Source of the DNA: Candidatus Dormiibacterota bacterium
GTDB taxonomy: Bacteria > Chloroflexota > Dormibacteria > Aeolococcales > Aeolococcaceae
Direction: 5' to 3'
NCBI GenBank assembly: GCA_963709585.1
Contig: CAVPXI010000006.1
Span: 128,001-192,000, forward strand
Length of the DNA: 64,000 nt
A program made the translations under genes and the position numbers. The notes beneath the pieces were generated by a model. The model saw only the letters and a program-made list of their open reading frames with translations. It was not told the origin of the DNA and searched no databases. Below are positions 26,308-36,794 of this stretch, in pieces. How positions within the stretch are numbered: position 1 is the first letter of the stretch; each line of letters opens with the position of its first letter.

Positions 26308-26572
26308 GACCTATATCGAAGCTTTCGGCTTAAAGATCCGCGCGCCGCACCCGACGCACTTGTGAGCAGGGCGTTCCTCGGGCGGGATCAACTCGGCTTG
26401 GTCAAAGTTCAGCGGGATGATCCGCTTGCTTCCGCACCCCGCACAGGTCATCGCTAGGCGCTTAGGGCTACGAACCGCCACAGTGTGAGGACGGTACCGG
26501 GGGAGGGAGTGGCTGTCGGTGCGCTACCGAACCCTAGGAATGGTGTGTCAACTATATCGTTGCCCAAATCCG

Positions 26573-26648
26573 TATACTCTCGAGAAGCCGGGATCCACCC
26601 GGTGCGGCCGGTGGGGCGACTGTCAGAGCGAACCTTTGGAGGTAGCCC
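26573..26648 (+). promoter_or_regulatory. Conserved -10 box and structured 5' leader, copy 1 (upstream half displaced by the IS to 23435-23450)
   Basis: TATACT; CCGGG-ATCCA-CCCGG; CGGCCGG; GGGGCGAC...GGAGGTAGCCC-ATG. Collinear with 31085-31171. Confidence 0.75.
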
Positions 26649-27012
26649 ATGCTTGGTGTTCACCGGTTCCGCGCGCTGGTCGGCGTGGCCGCGGCGGTCG
26701 GCGTCGTGGCCTTCGCCGTCCATGCCGGAGCGCAGAACTCCGACGCCCGGCCGCTATGTGAGTTGGGCACCACCGGCCGTCGCCACCGCGACGCCGGGGG
26801 CGGGCCCGGCACTTCCGATGGCGAGCGCCTCGCCCGCCGCGAACGCCGGACCACTTGGAGGTCTGTCCACGCCGCTCTCGGGGCTGTTCAAGCAGTTGAA
26901 CGCGAACACGGCGGCGACGGCCGGCGGCGAATACTCGGTGCTGCAGGACCTCGAACGCGCCCTCGCGGCTCACATTCAGCAGTTCTTGCATTGGGTCACG
27001 GGCGGACGATGA
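26649..27012 (+). CDS. Hypothetical exported/membrane-anchored protein, about 120 aa (frameshift near 26735)
   Basis: MLGVHRFRALVGVAAAVGVVAFAVHAGAQ joined to ...TPTPGRYVSW...QFLHWVTGGR*; GGAGG RBS. Confidence 0.6.
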
Positions 27013-27036: not shown

Positions 27037-28900
27037 GTGCCACCTCCTCTCGTGCCAGGCGAAAAGCGCCGGCCAGACATCCGCAACGTCGCGATCATCG
27101 CGCACGTCGACCACGGCAAGACGACGCTTGTCGACGCCCTGCTCAAGCAATCGCGAGTCTTCGCCGCCCACGAACAGGTCGGCGAGTTGATCATGGATTC
27201 GAACGATCTCGAGAGGGAGAAGGGAATCACGATCCTCGCCAAGACCACTTCGGTTCGCTACAACGGGGTCAAGCTCAACATCATCGACACCCCGGGCCAC
27301 GCCGACTTCGGGGGCGAGGTCGAGCGAAGTCCTTGGGATGGCGGACGGGTGCCTGTTGCTGGTCGACGCCGCCGAGGGCCCGATGCCGCAGACGCGGGTC
27401 GTGCTTCGCCAGGCGCTCGCTCTCGGCCTGCAGCCGATCATCGTGGTCAACAAGATCGACCGCACCAACGCCCAGCCGGCCGAGACGGTCGAGGCCACGC
27501 ACGACCTGCTGCTCGAGCTTGCCAAGGAGTCGTGGCAGCTGGACGCGCCGATCCTCTACACCGACGCTCGCGAGGGCACCGCGACCGCCGACCTCACGCA
27601 CGCGGGCGTCACGCTCGAGCCCCTCCTCGACGCCATCCTCGAGCACGTGCCGCCGCCCCTCGCGGACCCCGACGGCCCCCTGCAGATGCTGGTGAGCAAC
27701 CTCGACCACGACAACTGGAGCGGCCGGCTCGCGCTCGGGCGGATTCAGCGAGGCACCGTGCATCCCGGACAGAGCGTCGTCTCCTGCACGGCGTCGGGTG
27801 CGGGGCGGATCGAACGGATCGCGACGGTGCTCACCGTCGAGGCGCTCCAGCGCCTGTCGGTGGAGTTGGCGTCCGCCGGCGAGATCGTCTACCTCTCTGG
27901 ACTCGCGGCGGTTGCCATCGGCGACACCATCGCCGACGCCGAACATCCCGAGGCTTTGCCGCGCCTCGAGATCGGCGAGCCGACGCTGCGGATGCAGTTC
28001 TCGGTCAACCAGTCACCGCTCGCCGGGCGCGAGGCAACCGTGAGCAGCACGTCACGACAGCTGCGCGCGCGCCTGGAACGGGAGTTGCTGACCAACGTCG
28101 CGTTGCGGGTCGAGGACGGGCCGACCGCCGACATCTTCGACGTGAGCGGACGCGGCGAGTTGCATCTCGCGATCCTCATCGAGACGATGCGCCGCGAGGG
28201 GTATGAGTTCGAGGTGTCGCGACCGGCGGTGATCACCAAGGAGGTCGACGGCGAGCGCGTGGAACCCGTCGAGGATTGCGTCATCGACTGCTCGGCGGAC
28301 GTGGTCGGCGCCATCACCGATGCACTCGGCAGTCGCGGGGCAAAGATGACCGCGATGCGAACCGACGCCGGGGGCGGTGTGCGCCTGACCTACCACGCGC
28401 CAACTCGCGCGCTCATCGGTTTGCGCAGCCAGATCCTCACACTGACACGCGGCACCGGCGTGATGGCGACACGGCTGCTCGGCTGGGAGCGCACCTGGGC
28501 GCTGCCCACGACGACGCGCGGCGGCGTGCTCACCGCGAGCCAACCGGGAACGGCTGTCGCCTACGGGCTGGTGACCCTCCAGGAGCGAGGGCAGCCGCTG
28601 ATCGCGCCGGGCACGCCGGTCTACGAGGGCATGATCGTCGGGCTCAACCGCCGGCCTGGGGACATCCACCTCAACGTGACCAAGCAGAAGCAGAAGACCA
28701 ACATCCGGTCGTCCACCGAGGACATGACCATCCGCCTGGTACCACCACGCAAGATGTCGCTCGAGGAGTGCCTCGACTTCATCATCGACGACGAGCTCGT
28801 CGAGGTCACGCCCGTGGGCATCCGCATGCGCAAGCGCGTGCTCAACGCGGACGAGCGCAACAAGCTCCGTAAGCGCTCGATGGCGACCGAGGCCGGTTAG
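27037..28900 (+). CDS. typA: Translational GTPase TypA/BipA (frameshift near 27328)
   Basis: [63 protein letters not shown]. Confidence 0.95.
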
Positions 28901-30445: not shown

Positions 30446-31048
30446 ATGCTCGGCGTCGTGGCCATAGCCGTGCGGCCGGCGACCGCGGATCGGTGGAGCG
30501 ACCTCGTCACGGTCTTCGGTCGGCGTGGCGAAGATCCTTCATGGTGCTGGTGTCAGCGCTTCCTCAACCCGGAACGTCAGAACTCCTCAGCCGCAGGAGC
30601 GGCACCGCACAATCGCGACGCGTTGTACCAGGAGATCACCCATGCTGCGGCACCGCCGGGGCTCATCGCCTATGTCGGTGATCATCCAGTCGGATGGACC
30701 AGAGTAGGACTCCGCTCTGCGTTTCCAGGGGTACGCGGCAACAGGGCTCTCGCAAGAGTGCTCAATGAGGATGACGCCGGAGTTTGGTGGGTGACGTGCA
30801 TCGTGGTCGACGGCCGGCACCGTCGATCCGGGGTCGGATTGGCCCTCCTGCGAGCCGCAGTCGAATTCGCCCGCGACCACGGTGCGACTGCGGTCGAGGG
30901 ACATCCAGTCGATGTCGCCGCCCTCAAGGCCGCACGAGTGGCAGGATCCGCCATCTACACCGGAACCGTGGCGATGTTCGTCGCCGCGGGTTTCGTCGAG
31001 GTCGCTCGCACGTATCCCACCCGGCCGGTGATGCGGCTCTTGATGTGA
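30446..31048 (+). CDS. GNAT family N-acetyltransferase
   Basis: CWC, PVGW, HRRSGVGLALL, VEGHPVD, FVAAGF. Confidence 0.9.
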   Translation: MLGVVAIAVRPATADRWSDLVTVFGRRGEDPSWCWCQRFLNPERQNSSAAGAAPHNRDALYQEITHAAAPPGLIAYVGDHPVGWTRVGLRSAFPGVRGNRALARVLNEDDAGVWWVTCIVVDGRHRRSGVGLALLRAAVEFARDHGATAVEGHPVDVAALKAARVAGSAIYTGTVAMFVAAGFVEVARTYPTRPVMRLLM

Positions 31049-31062
31049 ACGTCGGACGACAC

Positions 31063-31171
31063 TTGACAGACATACACAAATCCGTATAGTCTGCTCGCTG
31101 TCCGGGTACTCACCCGGAACGGCCGGAGGGGCGACCGATCACCGAACGACGTCTATCGGAGGTCGCCCATC
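31063..31171 (+). promoter_or_regulatory. Conserved sigma70-type promoter and structured 5' leader, copy 2
   Basis: TTGACA (31063)-16 nt-TATAGT; TCCGGG-TACTCA-CCCGGA; CGGCCGG; GGGCGACC/GGTCGCCC stem overlapping the GGAGG SD. Confidence 0.8.
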
Positions 31172-31411
31172 GTGGTTCAACTCAAGGCACTGATCGATAA
31201 CTGGATCCTCATCGCGCAGGGCCTGCTCGCGAGCGTCGGCGCGCTGGCGTTCCTGATCGCGTTCATGTACAAGATCGTGGCCGTCGACCCCGCCAGTGTC
31301 GCCCAGGCGAAGAAATGGATCGGCCGCATCGTCTTCGGAACGATCGGCGTCGAAGTGGCAGGCACGCTGACCCACGCGCTTATCGCCAGCGTCCCAGCCA
31401 CGATTCACTGA
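31172..31411 (+). CDS. Pilin-like (TrbC/VirB2-type) small two-helix membrane protein
   Basis: 79 aa; TM-loop-'AQAKKWIGRIVFG'-TM pattern; precedes a VirB6-like gene. Confidence 0.65.
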   Translation: MVQLKALIDNWILIAQGLLASVGALAFLIAFMYKIVAVDPASVAQAKKWIGRIVFGTIGVEVAGTLTHALIASVPATIH

Positions 31412-31416
31412 GCGGG

Positions 31417-32358
31417 ATGCAGTCGCTCCCTGGAATCGTGCAGGGGATCCGTGATCCCCTCGGCTCGATCCTCCAACTGCTGACCGGCGTGCTGTCGCAC
31501 TTCATCGCGACCGCGCGTGCCGACCTCAACTCTGAGCTCGGTCGCTATCTGTTCACGACCGTCGACCCGACGGGCGGAGGCACCCGCGCATTGACGGCCA
31601 ACCCGGTGATCGCCCATCTGAACGGCTCGATCGCGCTGGTCGCGGACGTGCTCGTCGGCGCCGTCGTGCTCTATGCCTCGCTGCGGAGCATCTTCGAGCA
31701 CTCGATTCGCGCGCGCTACGCGCTCCATCTCGTGATCCCGCGCGTCATGGCGGCGATCGTGCTGGTGCATGGATCGATCTATTTCGTCCAGATGGCTGTC
31801 GACCTGAACAATGCCATCGGCGGCGTGGCCGAGTCGCTTGGCGGCCCCTTGACCATCGACACGCTTCCGTGGTCGGGGTCGATGAGCGCGGCGACAGTGT
31901 CGATCATCCAGGGCTCGCAGGACCTGTTCCACGCGGTCTTCGCGCTCGGCGTTGTCGTCGCGGTGGTGATCCTCGTGCTCTCCTACGTCATCCGCACGGC
32001 GATGCTGGACATCCTCGTCGTGCTCGCCCCGCTGGCGGCGTTGTGCTCGGCGCTGCCGGACACACGCCGCTATGCCGCCACGTGGCTCCGTCTGTTCATG
32101 GTTGCCGTATTCATGCAGTCCATCCAATTGATCATTCTGCGGGTCGCGATGTCGGTCGGCTTCGGTACCGGGAGCGGTATCGCCGAGAGTCTGTTCGCGC
32201 TGGCGATACTCTGGATCGTTCTCAAGGTACCGGGAACGCTGCATGCGGCAACCCACGTCGAAACCAAGGCGCACACAGCGATGCGGCATGTGCAACGGTC
32301 GATGCACAGGGCGCTGGCGCCGGCACATCACGTCGTGCGCCACCGGACCGCGCTGTGA
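31417..32358 (+). CDS. VirB6/TrbL-like polytopic membrane protein
   Basis: IPRVMAAIVLVHGS..VDLNNA, YVIRTAMLDILVVLAPLAALCSALPDT..ATW, LKVP. Confidence 0.75.
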   Translation: MQSLPGIVQGIRDPLGSILQLLTGVLSHFIATARADLNSELGRYLFTTVDPTGGGTRALTANPVIAHLNGSIALVADVLVGAVVLYASLRSIFEHSIRARYALHLVIPRVMAAIVLVHGSIYFVQMAVDLNNAIGGVAESLGGPLTIDTLPWSGSMSAATVSIIQGSQDLFHAVFALGVVVAVVILVLSYVIRTAMLDILVVLAPLAALCSALPDTRRYAATWLRLFMVAVFMQSIQLIILRVAMSVGFGTGSGIAESLFALAILWIVLKVPGTLHAATHVETKAHTAMRHVQRSMHRALAPAHHVVRHRTAL

Positions 32359-32862
32359 TTCGCGCTTTCGCGGCACTCACCGCGGTGATCGCCGTCGGCC
32401 TCGGCGGCGGCACTGCTCTCGCGAGCGGTGCGAGCAGTGAGGCGGCAGGCGTTGCGTTCGTCAAACCGCTGACCCACGCATGGATCTCGCAGGGGTTCGG
32501 ATGCACGAGCTTCGCGTTCGAACCCGTCGACCGCGCGTGTGCCGGTGGGCACTGGCACTCGGGGATCGATCTGGCAGCGGCCCGCGGCACTCCGGTGATG
32601 GCAACGCTCCCCGGCATCGTCACGGTCATCGTGTCGCCAACGGCATACGGGCTCCACGTGGTCATCGATCACGGCGGCGGATCTGAGCAGCCTCTACGGT
32701 CACCTGGACACGGTGGTGGTCGCCAGTGGCGACGTCGTCGCCGCCGGCCAGGTGATCGGAACCGTCGGATCGACCGGCAACGCGACCGGACCGCATCTGC
32801 ACTTCGAGATCCGGCGCGATGGGATCGCCGAGGATCCGCGCCTGGACCTCGCGCTCCCGTGA
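32355..32862 (+). CDS. Secreted M23 metallopeptidase (frameshift near 32682)
   Basis: Signal peptide, HSGIDLA, YGHL, GSTGNATGPHLHFEIR. Confidence 0.88.
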
Positions 32863-32867
32863 GGCTC

Positions 32868-33494
32868 CTATCCGGTGGGCACGCTCGTCGCGCTGCGGGT
32901 CTCGGCGGCGCTGCGGCGCGCCTGCTTCCACACGACCCAGATCCGCTGCACGGCGGTGACGTTGGTGAGGATGGCGAGGATCCAGAGCGCCCAGATGAGC
33001 AGTGGCGAGATGACCAGCCCGATGACGGTGATCACGACCCGCTCAGGGCGGGCCAGGAGTCCGCCGTCACCGTTGAATCCCAGGGACTGGGCGCGTGCGC
33101 GCACGTAGGACACGAGCAACGATCCCGTCAGCGCGAAGACAACGAGCATCGGCTCGAGCGTGTGATGACCGTGAAAGACGAAGTAATAGAGAAGCGCGAT
33201 GGATGTCATCGCCTCCGCGTAGCGGTCCACGGTCGAGTCGAGAAACGCTCCATAGCTCTGCTCGCGGCCGCTGACGCGAGCGAGCGCACCATCGAGGATG
33301 TCGAATCCGCTGGCGATCAGCAGGAGCACGCCGCCCGGCAGGAGAAACCCCAGAGCGATCAGGACCGCGGAGCCGGCGCAGATGCACAGCCCGAGCATCG
33401 TCAGGATGTTCGGAGTCAGGTGCAGCGCATGAAGGGCAGGAACGACGCGACGCGCGCCGTTCCTAACCCAGTCCTGGAGCCTGGACGTGAACAC
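32868..33494 (-). CDS. pgsA: Phosphatidylinositol(-phosphate) synthase-like CDP-alcohol phosphatidyltransferase
   Basis: TPNILT, DILDGALAR..GAFLDSTVDR, VSYVRARAQ, RPER. Confidence 0.85.
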   Translation of the reverse strand: MFTSRLQDWVRNGARRVVPALHALHLTPNILTMLGLCICAGSAVLIALGFLLPGGVLLLIASGFDILDGALARVSGREQSYGAFLDSTVDRYAEAMTSIALLYYFVFHGHHTLEPMLVVFALTGSLLVSYVRARAQSLGFNGDGGLLARPERVVITVIGLVISPLLIWALWILAILTNVTAVQRIWVVWKQARRSAAETRSATSVPTG

Positions 33495-34632
33495 CGGATG
33501 CCACCGTGCTCGCGCCGGCGCGTTCACGCGCCACGCGATACACGTCGAGGACCTCGTCGACCACGTGCTCCCAGTCATACAGTTGCGCTTTGGCGAGCCC
33601 ACGCTCGCTCATCGCCACACGTCGTGCCGGGTCATCGATCAGCGCGCCGAGCGCCGCCGCCCACTCCTTGGCATGGCGCGGCGGGACGAGCACCCCGTCC
33701 ACGTCATGCAGGATGACGCTGCTGAAGCCGGGGATCGACGATGCGATCACCGGAACGCCGCTGGCCATTGCTTCGAGCAGCACGATGCCGAAGCTCTCGC
33801 CGCCGGTTGCCGGAGCGCAGAAGATGTCCGCAGACGCGTAGTACCTCGGGAGCAGTTCAGCGGACACCCTGCCCGCGAACTCGACGTCGGGGATGCCCAT
33901 CGCGGCGACCTGACTCTCATACCCCCAGCGCATCGGACCGTCGCCGACCACGACCAGCCGCGCGTCATCGCGAACGCGGCGCAGCTGGCCGTAGGCCTCG
34001 AGCAGCGTCGGCAGCCCCTTGCGCGACTCGAGACGCCCCACGAAGAGGATCGTCGTCTTACCGGGCGCGCGCAGCTCATCGAGCTGGGGATGCCTGGGAT
34101 TGAACCGGGCGCAGTCGATGCCGTTGGGAACGACCCGATACTCACCCTCGAAGTACCGCGCGATGAAATCGCGCGCGGGCGCGCTCACGGCAACGTGGAC
34201 GTGGAGGCGGTTGAAATAGCGCTTGAGAAACGGCCGGCCGTAGTAGTAGCCGAGGTTGCGTCGCGCCATCGCGTGGAATGTGCCGACGTTCGCGCCGCTG
34301 TGGAAGCGCAGCACGGTTATCGGCAACGAGGGCACGAGCGGCTCGTGATAGTGCACGACGTCGAAGTGATTCTCGTCGAGCAAGGCCCGCACGCGCCGCA
34401 CCAGGTGGAACGACAGCGCGATACGGGCCACCGACCCATTGGTTCGCACTGGCACGCTCCGTCCGATCCGTACGTACCCGGGGATGCCGTGGTCGTCTCC
34501 GACGCGGCTCGACGGCGCGAGCACGGTCACGTCGTGGCCGCGCGCCCGCAGCTTTGCCGAGAGGTGCCGGACGTGCTCGGTCACTCCCCCCGGGTGCATG
34601 AAGTCGTACGGGGAGACGAGACAGATCTTCAT
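33463..34632 (-). CDS. pimA: GT4 glycosyltransferase, PimA-like mannosyltransferase
   Basis: VSPYDFMHPGGVTEHV, NGSVARI, HEPLVPSL, GGESFGIVLLEAMA. Confidence 0.8.
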   Translation of the reverse strand: MKICLVSPYDFMHPGGVTEHVRHLSAKLRARGHDVTVLAPSSRVGDDHGIPGYVRIGRSVPVRTNGSVARIALSFHLVRRVRALLDENHFDVVHYHEPLVPSLPITVLRFHSGANVGTFHAMARRNLGYYYGRPFLKRYFNRLHVHVAVSAPARDFIARYFEGEYRVVPNGIDCARFNPRHPQLDELRAPGKTTILFVGRLESRKGLPTLLEAYGQLRRVRDDARLVVVGDGPMRWGYESQVAAMGIPDVEFAGRVSAELLPRYYASADIFCAPATGGESFGIVLLEAMASGVPVIASSIPGFSSVILHDVDGVLVPPRHAKEWAAALGALIDDPARRVAMSERGLAKAQLYDWEHVVDEVLDVYRVARERAGASTVASGVHVQAPGLG

Positions 34633-35606
34633 TGCGTCGCGGGAGCCGTCCAGATGCGGTCGAGGACGTGCCATTGCTCGGGATGCTCGCGGATCGCCTC
34701 CTCGAAGATTCGCAGCAGCATCTGCGCAGTCTTGCGCACCTCGGCATCCCTTGGAGCATCCGGGGAATAGCGGATCTCGGGATGCACCATGGCAGTGACC
34801 CGATAACGGTTGCGGAATAGCACGATCGGGACGATCGCGGCGCCGGCTCGAATGGCGATCTCGACCGTCCCAATGGGGATCGGCGCCGGCTGGCCGAAGA
34901 ACTCGAGCGGCTCGCCGTTGCCGATGAGGTCGCGGTCGAGAGCCATCGCCACGACACCGCCGGAGCGGAGCACCTTGAAGACCTCGCGCATCGACGCGGC
35001 GCCGAGCCGGCGGGCGACCTGGGGATCGCCTTCGCGCATTGCCTGGGTGTCGATCGGGATGATCTGGACCCCCTGGGCCCTCCGTGCTCCGACGACCCGG
35101 TCGAAGAGCTGTTTGGGACGGAGCACCTCGGCGAGCAGCGCCATCTTGCCGCCCATCTTGTTCCAGCCCGCGAGACCGACCTCCCACGACCCGAAGTGCA
35201 TCGACGCGACCACGACGCCATTGCCGCGCGCGATGGCATTCTCGAAGTGGTACAGGTCTTTCATGTCGATCCGCGACGGCAGGTCGGTTCGTCGCGACGA
35301 CATCTCCATCACGTCCACCCAGCAGTGGGTGAGATTGCGGACGTTGCGGCGAATCAGGTGCTTGAGGTGCCGGTCGCCGATGGCGGGAACGATATGGCGG
35401 AGGTTGTCGCGCAGGCCGTCGAAGCGGCTCGGCACTGTGGCCAGCAGCGCGTCGGCGGCGCGGTCCCCAAGCCAGTACGACACCGATTGCGGGAGCGCAC
35501 CGACCAGGGCCTCGGCACCGCGGTAGGCGTAGTACGGCAGCATCGGGTCGCGCGCAACCCGCTGGCGGGCGCGCGGCTCCACCGTCATGTCGCCGGCCTG
35601 CGTCAA
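34629..35606 (-). CDS. Lysophospholipid/PIM acyltransferase (PatA / lipid A acyltransferase family)
   Basis: HFGSWE, DRD, FFG, IREHPEQW. Confidence 0.85.
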   Translation of the reverse strand: MTQAGDMTVEPRARQRVARDPMLPYYAYRGAEALVGALPQSVSYWLGDRAADALLATVPSRFDGLRDNLRHIVPAIGDRHLKHLIRRNVRNLTHCWVDVMEMSSRRTDLPSRIDMKDLYHFENAIARGNGVVVASMHFGSWEVGLAGWNKMGGKMALLAEVLRPKQLFDRVVGARRAQGVQIIPIDTQAMREGDPQVARRLGAASMREVFKVLRSGGVVAMALDRDLIGNGEPLEFFGQPAPIPIGTVEIAIRAGAAIVPIVLFRNRYRVTAMVHPEIRYSPDAPRDAEVRKTAQMLLRIFEEAIREHPEQWHVLDRIWTAPATQ

Positions 35607-35633
35607 CGCCGTTGGCTCCCGATCGCCCGGCGG

Positions 35634-36794
35634 TTAATTCGTCGCGGGTGTGGCGGGTTCCGCCTCCGCAGCTTCGGGCAGCACGGCGGCAACGCGGCCG
35701 TTGCGCCGCCCTCCCCCCGTCTCGACGCCGGCGATGAACTCCTCGGTCGCCCGGTGGGCGTCGTCGTCGGAGACCTGGCGTGGCGGCGACTTCATGAAGT
35801 ACGACGCCGGACCCTCGAGCGTGCCGCTGAGGCCGCGATCGAGCCCGAGCTTGCAGCAGCGCACCGCGTCAATGACGATGCCCGCACTGTTTGGCGAATC
35901 GTGCACCTCGAGCTTCAACTCGACACTGAGCGGCACGTCGCCGAAGGACTTGCCTTCGAGGCGGATGAACGCCCACTTGCGGTCGTTGAGCCAGGGCACG
36001 TAGTCCGACGGTCCGATGTGGATGTGATCCTTCTCCATCGGCGTCGCCAGCTGCGACTGCACGCTGTTGGTCTTGCTGATCTTCTTGCTCATCAAACGCT
36101 CGCGCTCGAGCATGTTGAGGAAGTCGGTGTTGCCGCCGAAGTTGAGCTGGTAGGTGTTCTCGAGCTCGACGCCGCGCTCACGAAACAGGTGGGTGAGCAC
36201 GCGATGGACGATCGTGGCGCCGACCTGCGACTTGATGTCGTCGCCGATGATGGGTACGCCTGCCTTGCGGAAACGCGCCTGCCAGTAGTCCTCGCGGGCG
36301 ATGAACACGGGCATGCAGTTCACCATCGCGCACGGCGCCTCGAGGATCTGCTCGGTGTACCAACGGGTTGCAGCCTCGCTGCCGACCGGCAGGTAGTTGA
36401 CCACCACGTCGGTGCCGGTGTCCTTGAGCACCTGGGCGATGTCGACCGTGGATCCGGGAGCCTTGGTGATCACTTCGGACAGGTACTTGCCGAGCCCGTC
36501 GTGGGTCATGCCGCGCAGAACCGGAATGTTCAGCTTCGGGACGTCGCTGAATTTCACGGTGTTGTTGAGCCCACTGAAGATCGCTTCGGAGACGTCCTTT
36601 CCGACCTTTTCCCTGTCGATGTCGAAGGCCGCCGAGATCTCGATGTCCGAGATGTGGTAGCCGCCGAGGTCCACATGCATGAGACCCGGGACGGTGTCGT
36701 CCGGATCCGCGTGCTTGTAAAACTCGAGCCCCTGGACGAACGACGAGGCGCAGTTGCCCACGCCGATGATCGCGACTTTGACTTTCTTGCTCAC
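35634..36794 (-). CDS. ino1: Inositol-3-phosphate synthase
   Basis: [45 protein letters not shown]. Confidence 0.96.

Follow-up and report, generated by a model that had tools for sequence, protein, structure and literature searches.

The stretch of DNA analysed here, a window of 64,000 nucleotides (nt) from an uncultured bacterium of the class Candidatus Dormibacteria, contains three genes that encode a pilin resembling VirB2/TrbC, a polytopic membrane protein resembling TrbL/VirB6 and a secreted peptidase of the M23 family (Table 1). Only 5 nt separate the stop codon of the pilin gene from the start of the TrbL-like gene, and the GTG start codon of the M23 gene overlaps the TrbL-like stop codon within the sequence GTGA, which agrees with the description of three tightly coupled + strand genes in the original prediction, a reading made earlier from the sequence without database searches. 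The strong promoter that this prediction placed before the genes is present; it is of the sigma-70 type and is the sole site of that quality in 6.8 kb, where shuffled sequence averages 0.7. The GC content of the operon (0.64-0.68) lies within the range over the whole window (0.61-0.74), in keeping with the host-like composition that had been ascribed to it.

The operon is flanked by ordinary genes, as had been predicted: GNAT, ACC-deaminase-like and TypA genes upstream, and PgsA, PimA, acyltransferase and Ino1 genes downstream. The predicted absence of att sites is matched by a search for att-like exact direct repeats bracketing the operon, which found none, and neither a relaxase nor an integrase gene was seen in the operon neighbourhoods scanned, those of the window and of its relatives, no genome-wide relaxase search having been made. 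The locus does not show the traits of a conjugative element, be it a plasmid or an integrative and conjugative element (ICE), namely a relaxase, an integrase, att repeats and a patchy distribution.

Table 1. Positions of the genes and regulatory features. Plain numbers are window positions; G000 is the genome of the window and C7 one of its contigs.
Feature	Position	Strand	Remarks
VirB2/TrbC-like pilin gene	31172-31411	+	79 amino acids (aa); two-helix hairpin; signal peptide absent
TrbL/VirB6-like polytopic membrane protein gene	31417-32358	+	313 aa
Secreted M23 peptidase gene	32355-32862	+	168 aa when intact
Sigma-70-type promoter TTGACA-16-TATAGT	31063-31090	+	11/12 positions match
5' leader	31097-31171	+	two hairpins before the pilin gene
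Leader hairpin 1	31102-31107 pairs with 31112-31117
Leader hairpin 2	31129-31136 pairs with 31161-31168		overlaps the GGAGG Shine-Dalgarno sequence at 31158-31162
Second promoter and leader copy	26545-26648	+	ACAAATCCGTATAC box, hairpin 1, CGGCCGGtGGGGCGAC, GGAGGTAGCCC before ATG
ACAAATCCGTATA box			sequence element of this leader type
Gene X	26649-27012	+	about 120 aa: N-terminal transmembrane (TM) helix, Pro/Ala-rich linker, C-terminal helix
PrgI-ParA fusion and VirB4 genes	G000:C7:353122-356613		between an aldehyde dehydrogenase gene and NrdJ
VirB4 gene	G000:C7:354526-356613		695 aa

Family assignment of the pilin and the TrbL-like protein

The TrbL-like protein belongs to the VirB6/TrbL family, as it scores 39.5 bits against Pfam TrbL_4 (cut-off 27), and in NCBI it carries the name 'conjugal transfer protein TrbL family protein'. 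Denoting the families of the class as f1 to f5, with f1 as the family of the window, the orthologues of f2, f4 and f5 also exceed the TrbL_4 cut-off, and that of f3 matches PF04610 only, under its cut-off.

The pilin could be assigned through the profile of its family (alignment A4); of 1.84 billion representatives searched with it, just 124 proteins match at E <= 0.001. Among them is the protein P0125 (E 1.5e-30), itself above the cut-off of Pfam TrbC (31.5 versus 27.9); the profile also matches P0228 and P0227, at about E 2e-4, both of which pass the T4SS_pilin cut-off. By profile similarity these three proteins tie the family to VirB2/TrbC, and the window protein is accordingly taken as a predicted pilin of the VirB2/TrbC type found in type IV secretion systems (T4SSs) of monoderm bacteria. 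In the Atlas, the pilin adjoins a Dormibacterota cluster that was automatically named TrbC/VirB2 (score 0.93). Eighteen alignment columns are invariant across the five families, including a glutamate in the second helix; this is residue 61, within the hydrophobic stretch that contains GTxGVE. The AlphaFold2 (AF2) model of the pilin, with a predicted local distance difference test score (pLDDT) of 75.5, is a two-helix hairpin that is compatible with the VirB2 family, not diagnostic of it, and Foldseek returned no match to this model at E <= 0.001. Searching the sequences of the PDB with profiles of the pilin and of TrbL gave nothing at E <= 10. When the pilin and TrbL profiles were compared with hhalign, the probability was 0.3%, so that a relation of the kind known between CedA1 and CedA is not seen here. 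The T4SS origin implied by the original prediction is supported by Pfam and profile A4.

The M23 peptidase gene and its frameshift

Each half of the third gene is matched by Pfam Peptidase_M23, one at profile positions 3-44 and the other at 45-96, and the zinc motifs HxxxD and HxH of this peptidase family are present as HSGID and HLH. In the window the gene is split over two frames by one extra base at 32683, and the halves join exactly between profile positions 44 and 45. The two halves form one continuous frame in 18 of the 19 loci of other genomes of the genus, and in the nineteenth (L010) the gene is broken at another place than in the window. The extra letter at 32683 is missing from independent short-read contigs that come from two public soil runs of separate studies; the contig of run X1 is identical to the window over 1077 bases, save for a gap at that position. 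Run X2 has a coverage gap at 32407-32808. With the letter at 32683 removed, the protein reads ...IDHGGGLSSLYGHLD..., the same as in the nearest relative. The gene of the housekeeping GTPase TypA/BipA (window 27037-28900) also lies in two frames (open reading frames (ORFs) 27037-28206 and 27338-28900), and together with the frameshift in gene X this is a further sign of single-base indel errors in this metagenome-assembled genome (MAG). Since the break in the M23 gene is absent from the independent contigs and from nearly all relatives, and the MAG has other frameshifts, we read it as an assembly error or a rare variant, rather than as decay.

Distribution, descent and selection

The tallies given below (61 genomes of the order, 151 of the class and 223 of the phylum, including those for VirB4, VirD4 and the f2 loci) include genomes marked as unpublished (G039, G044, G048, G056, G089, G104, G131, G139, G148, G149, G166 and G168); alignments A1, A2 and A4 each hold one row from unpublished G048 (L027), and the tree holds L027 and L035. 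In no case does a claim rest on unpublished genomes alone, and they are left out of the count of 60 further loci, which comprise 17 from other f1 genera, 14 from f3, 22 from f4 and 7 from f5.

The TrbL-like gene is present in all 61 genomes of the order and, by profile search, in 141 of the 151 genomes of the class (82/87 among those of high quality), with 40/43 in f3, 44/48 in f4 and 11/11 in f5. It is nearly always single-copy in the class, and its scores drop with taxonomic distance. Outside the class, 22 of 223 phylum genomes match, at no more than 101 bits versus 125-504 inside the class; these matches are weaker, often multi-copy and located in longer ORFs, as is expected for mobile elements. 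A quick maximum-likelihood tree was made of 98 TrbL-like sequences, with the second TrbL of the window's own genome as outgroup. In this tree each taxonomic family falls on one side of a branch, with weak support for f4, and 6 label changes suffice for 7 groups, which is the minimum (label shuffles gave a mean of 62, and none of 200 was as low). It should be noted that kin share labels, so that the tree shows clustering by descent and no more.

Gene order is also retained. The pilin gene lies directly upstream of the TrbL-like gene in 60/60 further loci, and an M23 gene follows in 52 of them (f1 10/17, f3 14/14, f4 21/22, f5 7/7); in f2 the pilin and TrbL-like genes are adjacent in 14/14 loci, and M23 is not at the locus. 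The median ratio of nonsynonymous to synonymous substitution rates (dN/dS) within the genus is 0.040 for the pilin, 0.091 for TrbL and 0.12-0.16 for M23, with 0.092 for the neighbouring PgsA; the pilin is by this measure the most conserved part of the operon. By comparison of loci across the families, the ancestral operon would be (small membrane protein)-pilin-TrbL-M23-SSB, where SSB stands for a single-stranded DNA-binding protein. The class Dormibacteria has, to judge from these distributions and the tree, inherited the machine vertically since the origin of the class.

The operon could be viewed as the relic of a decaying ICE, given that the M23 gene is frameshifted in the window and that an ATPase, a relaxase and an integrase are all missing at the locus. 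However, the extra base is private to this assembly, which is also frameshifted in TypA and gene X, and the operon is single-copy throughout the class, under purifying selection and with a tree that tracks taxonomy. We reject the relic view on these grounds and think that it can hardly be right. The original prediction had taken the operon as domesticated, had asked for synteny and dN/dS across relatives, and had named absence from relatives or decay as what would speak against it; the first is confirmed by the distribution, tree and selection, the operon is kept among relatives with dN/dS values of 0.04-0.16, and its presence in most genomes of the class contradicts the adverse outcome.

VirB4, VirB3 and the coupling protein

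The original prediction also supposed that the ATPases of the system lie elsewhere in the genome under the same leader as the operon. The first part of this is borne out: a gene for a PrgI-ParA fusion protein and a VirB4 gene lie together on another contig (Table 1). The second part fails, for no leader was found before the VirB4 operon by fuzzy motif searches, by nhmmer over the whole genome or by direct reading of the upstream sequence. The protein is a VirB4: it matches Pfam P-loop_TraG and AAA_10 (36.2 bits each, both over the cut-off), its matches in the PDB are VirB4 (4ag5, E 2e-20) and TrwK (E 1e-10), and its Walker A and B motifs are readable. The 434-aa protein encoded upstream combines a PrgI-like N-terminal TM hairpin with a ParA/MinD-like domain. 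Against Pfam PrgI it scores 20.6, sub-threshold, and the f4 orthologue reaches 30.1 (cut-off 27); having the same position and N-terminal TM hairpin as the f4 orthologue, the own protein is classed as VirB3/PrgI-like.

A VirB4 orthologue was found in 131/151 class genomes. Its distance to the pilin operon is about 0.49-0.52 Mb in three nearly closed genomes of the genus, 1.5-2.4 kb in f2, and 10-14 kb in f4, where housekeeping genes lie between. One closed f2 genome has a VirB4-like gene (671 aa), preceded by a membrane-protein gene, 1.2 kb before the pilin gene, with a 198-aa gene and Dtd in between. The 198-aa gene was considered as a component of the machine and dropped; its copy in the window's genome travels with Dtd on contig C15, off both operons. 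Three f1 genomes that are 85-92% complete (G069 and G077 of genus g9, G177 of genus g21) have no TrbL-like gene and only a weak VirB4 match, and keep VirD4; the missing TrbL and VirB4 look like a joint loss.

The coupling protein VirD4 (PF02534) is not part of the conserved set. It was found in 60/151 class genomes (9/9 in the genus, 14/15 in f2, 3/43 in f3, 14/48 in f4 and 4/11 in f5), and in the window's genome it is confined to a separate, second T4SS-like cluster (G000:C18:8324-22682, L043), which encodes a TrbL of 539 aa, a VirB4 of 894 aa, an M23 peptidase, a CpaF/T2SSE-type ATPase, a ParA-like protein and VirD4. Of the 9 genus genomes sampled, 8 have a single VirD4 and the ninth (G137) has 4 matches. 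The order of VirD4 with respect to the other two loci is constant in three nearly closed genomes, so that this cluster may also be chromosomally inherited. Family f2 has VirD4 and another VirB4 paralogue, about 30% identical, 13-22 kb from the pilin operon (L048, L032; G049:C1:97172-120132), at the same relative place in the four genomes compared (G049, G043, G050 and G039).

It could be argued that the pilin operon is an accessory of this VirD4-bearing cluster, and that the two together perform true conjugation. The window's own genome has such a cluster and, by the pilin profile, just one pilin gene, and VirD4 is present in all sampled genomes of the genus and in nearly all of f2, where it lies near the pilin operon. 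However, VirD4 is rare or infrequent in f3, f4 and f5, whose genomes nearly all carry the TrbL-like gene; the three f1 genomes described above keep VirD4 and have no TrbL-like gene; and a TrbL, a VirB4 and an M23 separate from those of the conserved system are encoded in the second cluster. We consider the accessory role quite unlikely.

A dedicated single-stranded DNA-binding protein

In 57 of the 60 further loci an SSB gene, whose identity was confirmed with Pfam, follows downstream on the same strand, and two of the three loci without it have less than 600 bases of contig left downstream. The five genomes that were checked each have two SSBs, and in four of these (of f3, f4 and f5) one of the copies is the operon SSB. 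The idea that the operon SSB is merely the housekeeping copy was rejected, the checked genomes holding two SSBs and the window's genome having a separate rpsF-ssb-rpsR copy, the only one found there. The C-terminal acidic DDIPF tip of this housekeeping SSB is absent from 9/9 operon SSBs read. The operon SSBs (L046, L047, L050 and L064-L123) are about 113-137 aa long and recall the competence SSB paralogue SsbB, which is reportedly a competence-induced second SSB of Firmicutes. The likeness, drawn by analogy, would be that of a second, shorter SSB paralogue that exists next to the housekeeping SSB and is tied to a DNA-transport apparatus; the operon SSB of Dormibacteria differs in being absent from the window's genus.

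Two alternative functions bear on these observations. The machine might secrete or inject proteins, in contact-dependent antagonism or another cell interaction, rather than move DNA. The relaxase and the coupling protein are outside the conserved set, the window's genus runs its operon without an SSB, and a comparable role is proposed for the relaxase-less chromosomal T4SS of Patescibacteria, which is thought to be co-opted for non-conjugative functions (PMC12102498). Against protein secretion stand the dedicated SSB in the operons of four families, the absence of effector-like or immunity-like genes beside the operons examined, and the fact that such T4SSs normally need VirD4, which hardly any f3 genome has. 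We regard protein secretion as unlikely. Alternatively, the genes might have a role in the envelope without transport, for instance as an adhesion filament at the cell surface or in peptidoglycan remodelling. A wall hydrolase and membrane proteins are present, and the pilin is the best conserved part (dN/dS 0.04); nevertheless, the genes were lost jointly with the VirB4 ATPase in three f1 genomes and are linked to an SSB, and we hold a role without transport to be very unlikely.

The leader and gene X

The conserved leader noted in the original prediction is found in all 19 genus relatives and in a second copy within the window (Table 1). The sequence from promoter to start codon is conserved in 19/19 relatives, and the DNA upstream of the -35 box varies; a 19-nt stretch of the leader is invariant in 20/20 genus sequences. 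RNAalifold predicts 20 pairs for these 20 sequences, and compensatory changes occur in 2 of the pairs, both in hairpin 1. In hairpin 2, GGGCGACC pairs with GGTCGCCC, which covers the last two bases of GGAGG. No Rfam family was matched at the leader, either at gathering scores or at E <= 1; a match to Rfam sR45 at 30518-30571 was below its gathering score and was taken as chance.

The copy at 26545-26648 was found with nhmmer and the genus leader alignment (E 0.0022) and with a covariance model, R1 (23.3 bits, E 0.11). Model R1 places the leader before gene X in 11/11 genus loci, directly 5' of the pilin gene or gene X in 9/17 loci of other f1 genera, and in none of the loci of f2 to f5. In the window's genome, the leader sites are the one before the pilin operon, the one before gene X at 26649 and a truncated relic on C7, with no others. 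The relic (G000:C7:524703-524790) has the promoter, its box 22/22 identical, and the first hairpin, with no ORF behind it. It adjoins the gene that precedes the operon in relatives L005, L013 and L014, with both junctions seen in run X1, which points to an old breakpoint, probably a rearrangement scar.

Gene X encodes a small, membrane-anchored protein that is counted among the parts of the machine; its reading frame is broken in the window and complete in relatives. It was found in 24/24 genus genomes, on the same strand and 3-6 kb upstream of TrbL, and its product has no Pfam family. In f3 and f5 loci, iterated searches with hidden Markov models (HMMs) placed homologues of gene X immediately before the pilin gene; the profile may have drifted because of the low-complexity linker, yet the position is consistent. 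The promoter box and leader that gene X shares with the operon suggest joint control, and as hairpin 2 covers part of the ribosome-binding site, this control may act at the level of translation.

As a separate observation, the region downstream of the operon (window 32868-36794, - strand) contains genes for a CDP-alcohol phosphatidyltransferase, a PimA-like glycosyltransferase, a lipid-A-type acyltransferase and an inositol-1-phosphate synthase, the first identified by a Pfam scan and the others named from their translations. This cluster resembles the actinobacterial phosphatidylinositol-mannoside pathway, here in a Dormibacterota genome.

Discussion

Throughout the class Dormibacteria, the genomes have dispersed, vertically inherited homologues of VirB2, VirB3, VirB4 and VirB6 and a wall hydrolase; a dedicated SSB usually belongs to the set, and a conserved coupling protein does not. 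Based on these data, the genes described here very probably belong to a domesticated machine derived from a T4SS. Whether this machine moves DNA across the envelope is, as judged from the genes, about an even question. Taken as a whole, the view that we prefer, with modest confidence, is that the three genes form the membrane and cell-wall module of a chromosomal, relaxase-less machine that descends from a monoderm-type T4SS and handles single-stranded DNA (ssDNA).

In such a machine, VirB4, docked via VirB3 on the VirB6 channel, would power the extraction or assembly of the pilin and the passage of ssDNA; the M23 peptidase would open the peptidoglycan, as a functional stand-in for VirB1; and the dedicated SSB would coat ssDNA in the cytoplasm. 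The likeliest job may be the uptake or the cell-to-cell exchange of chromosomal DNA, as in the Ced/Ted and ComB systems. A conserved set that contains neither a relaxase nor a coupling protein makes uptake or exchange likelier than the transfer of a mobile element. The DNA-exchange function in the original prediction is thereby only made more probable: the SSB paralogue in nearly all other loci favours it, and the lack of this SSB in the window's own genus does not.

Several observations weigh against the machine as we describe it. The host organisms are uncultured, and the function is inferred from sequence. On its own, the pilin of the window stays sub-threshold against Pfam T4SS_pilin (14.2 bits, cut-off 26.6); VIA-align with its model listed only generic helical hairpins (Z <= 9.6), designed proteins at the top and T4SS pilins not among them; and the AF2 model of the TrbL-like protein is poor (pLDDT 57.6, predicted template-modelling score (pTM) 0.40). 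With the window's protein as query, 20/151 genomes, mostly of f3 genus g22, gave no VirB4 match, and 4 of the 5 VirB4-negative genomes that were rechecked have only a sub-threshold P-loop match in an ORF of 576-783 aa. A VirB8-like subunit was not recognised among the neighbours scanned, no family search having been made. M23 is absent from the locus in 7/17 loci of other f1 genera and in f2, and the operon SSB has been lost in the window's genus and its sister G162, and in family f2, so that ssDNA handling in the genus would have to use the housekeeping SSB. ComEC and DprA are present in the window's genome; they are common to most bacteria and prove nothing. Finally, the contigs of an RNA-library run (X19) are 92-99% alike over parts of the operon, and can show neither transcription nor a transcript start.

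The machine may be compared with three known systems. The ComB competence system of Helicobacter pylori, reportedly described by Hofreuter et al. in 2001, is a DNA uptake apparatus derived from a T4SS that works without VirD4 or a relaxase, alongside ComEC and DprA. ComB is a diderm system with VirB7-10 homologues, and no equivalents of these were seen in Dormibacteria.

The archaeal DNA-import systems Ced and Ted (Nat Commun 2023, PMC9905601) are, in gene content, a domesticated triad of VirB2-like, VirB6-like and VirB4-like proteins without a relaxase; a chromosomal, relaxase-free triad of this kind is present in the window's genome, relaxases having been looked for around the operons. The CedA1 pilin also has no cleaved leader, MinD/ParA-family genes accompany Ted loci, and the VirB4 gene can sit a few genes away (PMC9905601). 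Ced and Ted belong to another domain of life, and relative to them Dormibacteria add an M23 hydrolase, a PrgI-like protein and an SSB; moreover, unlike CedA1 and CedA, the Dormibacteria pilin has no detected similarity to the TrbL N-terminus.

In bacteria, a chromosomal, relaxase-less T4SS is described for Patescibacteria, also known as CPR (Microb Genom 2025, PMC12102498). This system is chromosomal, broadly conserved in its lineage and related to monoderm MPF-FATA, with VirB4, VirB6 and VirB2-like pilins, with M23/LysM-type hydrolases in place of VirB1, and with most clusters free of relaxases (PMC12102498). The systems are likened by gene content, and they differ in several aspects: Dormibacteria are free-living soil bacteria with genomes of 2-4 Mb and the CPR hosts are epibionts; the Dormibacteria genes are scattered over two to three loci, with a tip-less SSB paralogue in the operon; and, in the window's family, VirB3 carries a fused ParA-like domain.

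We tentatively put forward a more specific proposal, which is possible and which we would not yet expect to hold in full: the machine may be a bacterial counterpart of Ced/Ted, which the host captured when the class arose and has kept in order to import chromosomal ssDNA or exchange it between cells. It would be characterised by a tip-less SSB, by VirB3-ParA as a positioning module and by a new kind of leader that gates translation, and a common ancestry with the chromosomal T4SS of Patescibacteria, a sister lineage, is conceivable. A literature search, supplements not covered, found no description of a Dormibacterota T4SS.

Archaea (Ced/Ted) and Helicobacter (ComB) are already known to have domesticated conjugation machines, and Patescibacteria joined them in 2025. 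If our view is true, the capture of conjugation machines would be recurrent, or very old, in Terrabacteria. It would also supply a compact list of parts (pilin, VirB6, VirB3, VirB4, hydrolase and SSB) for heterologous tests, and a candidate mechanism of gene flow in an uncultured phylum of abundant, free-living soil bacteria.

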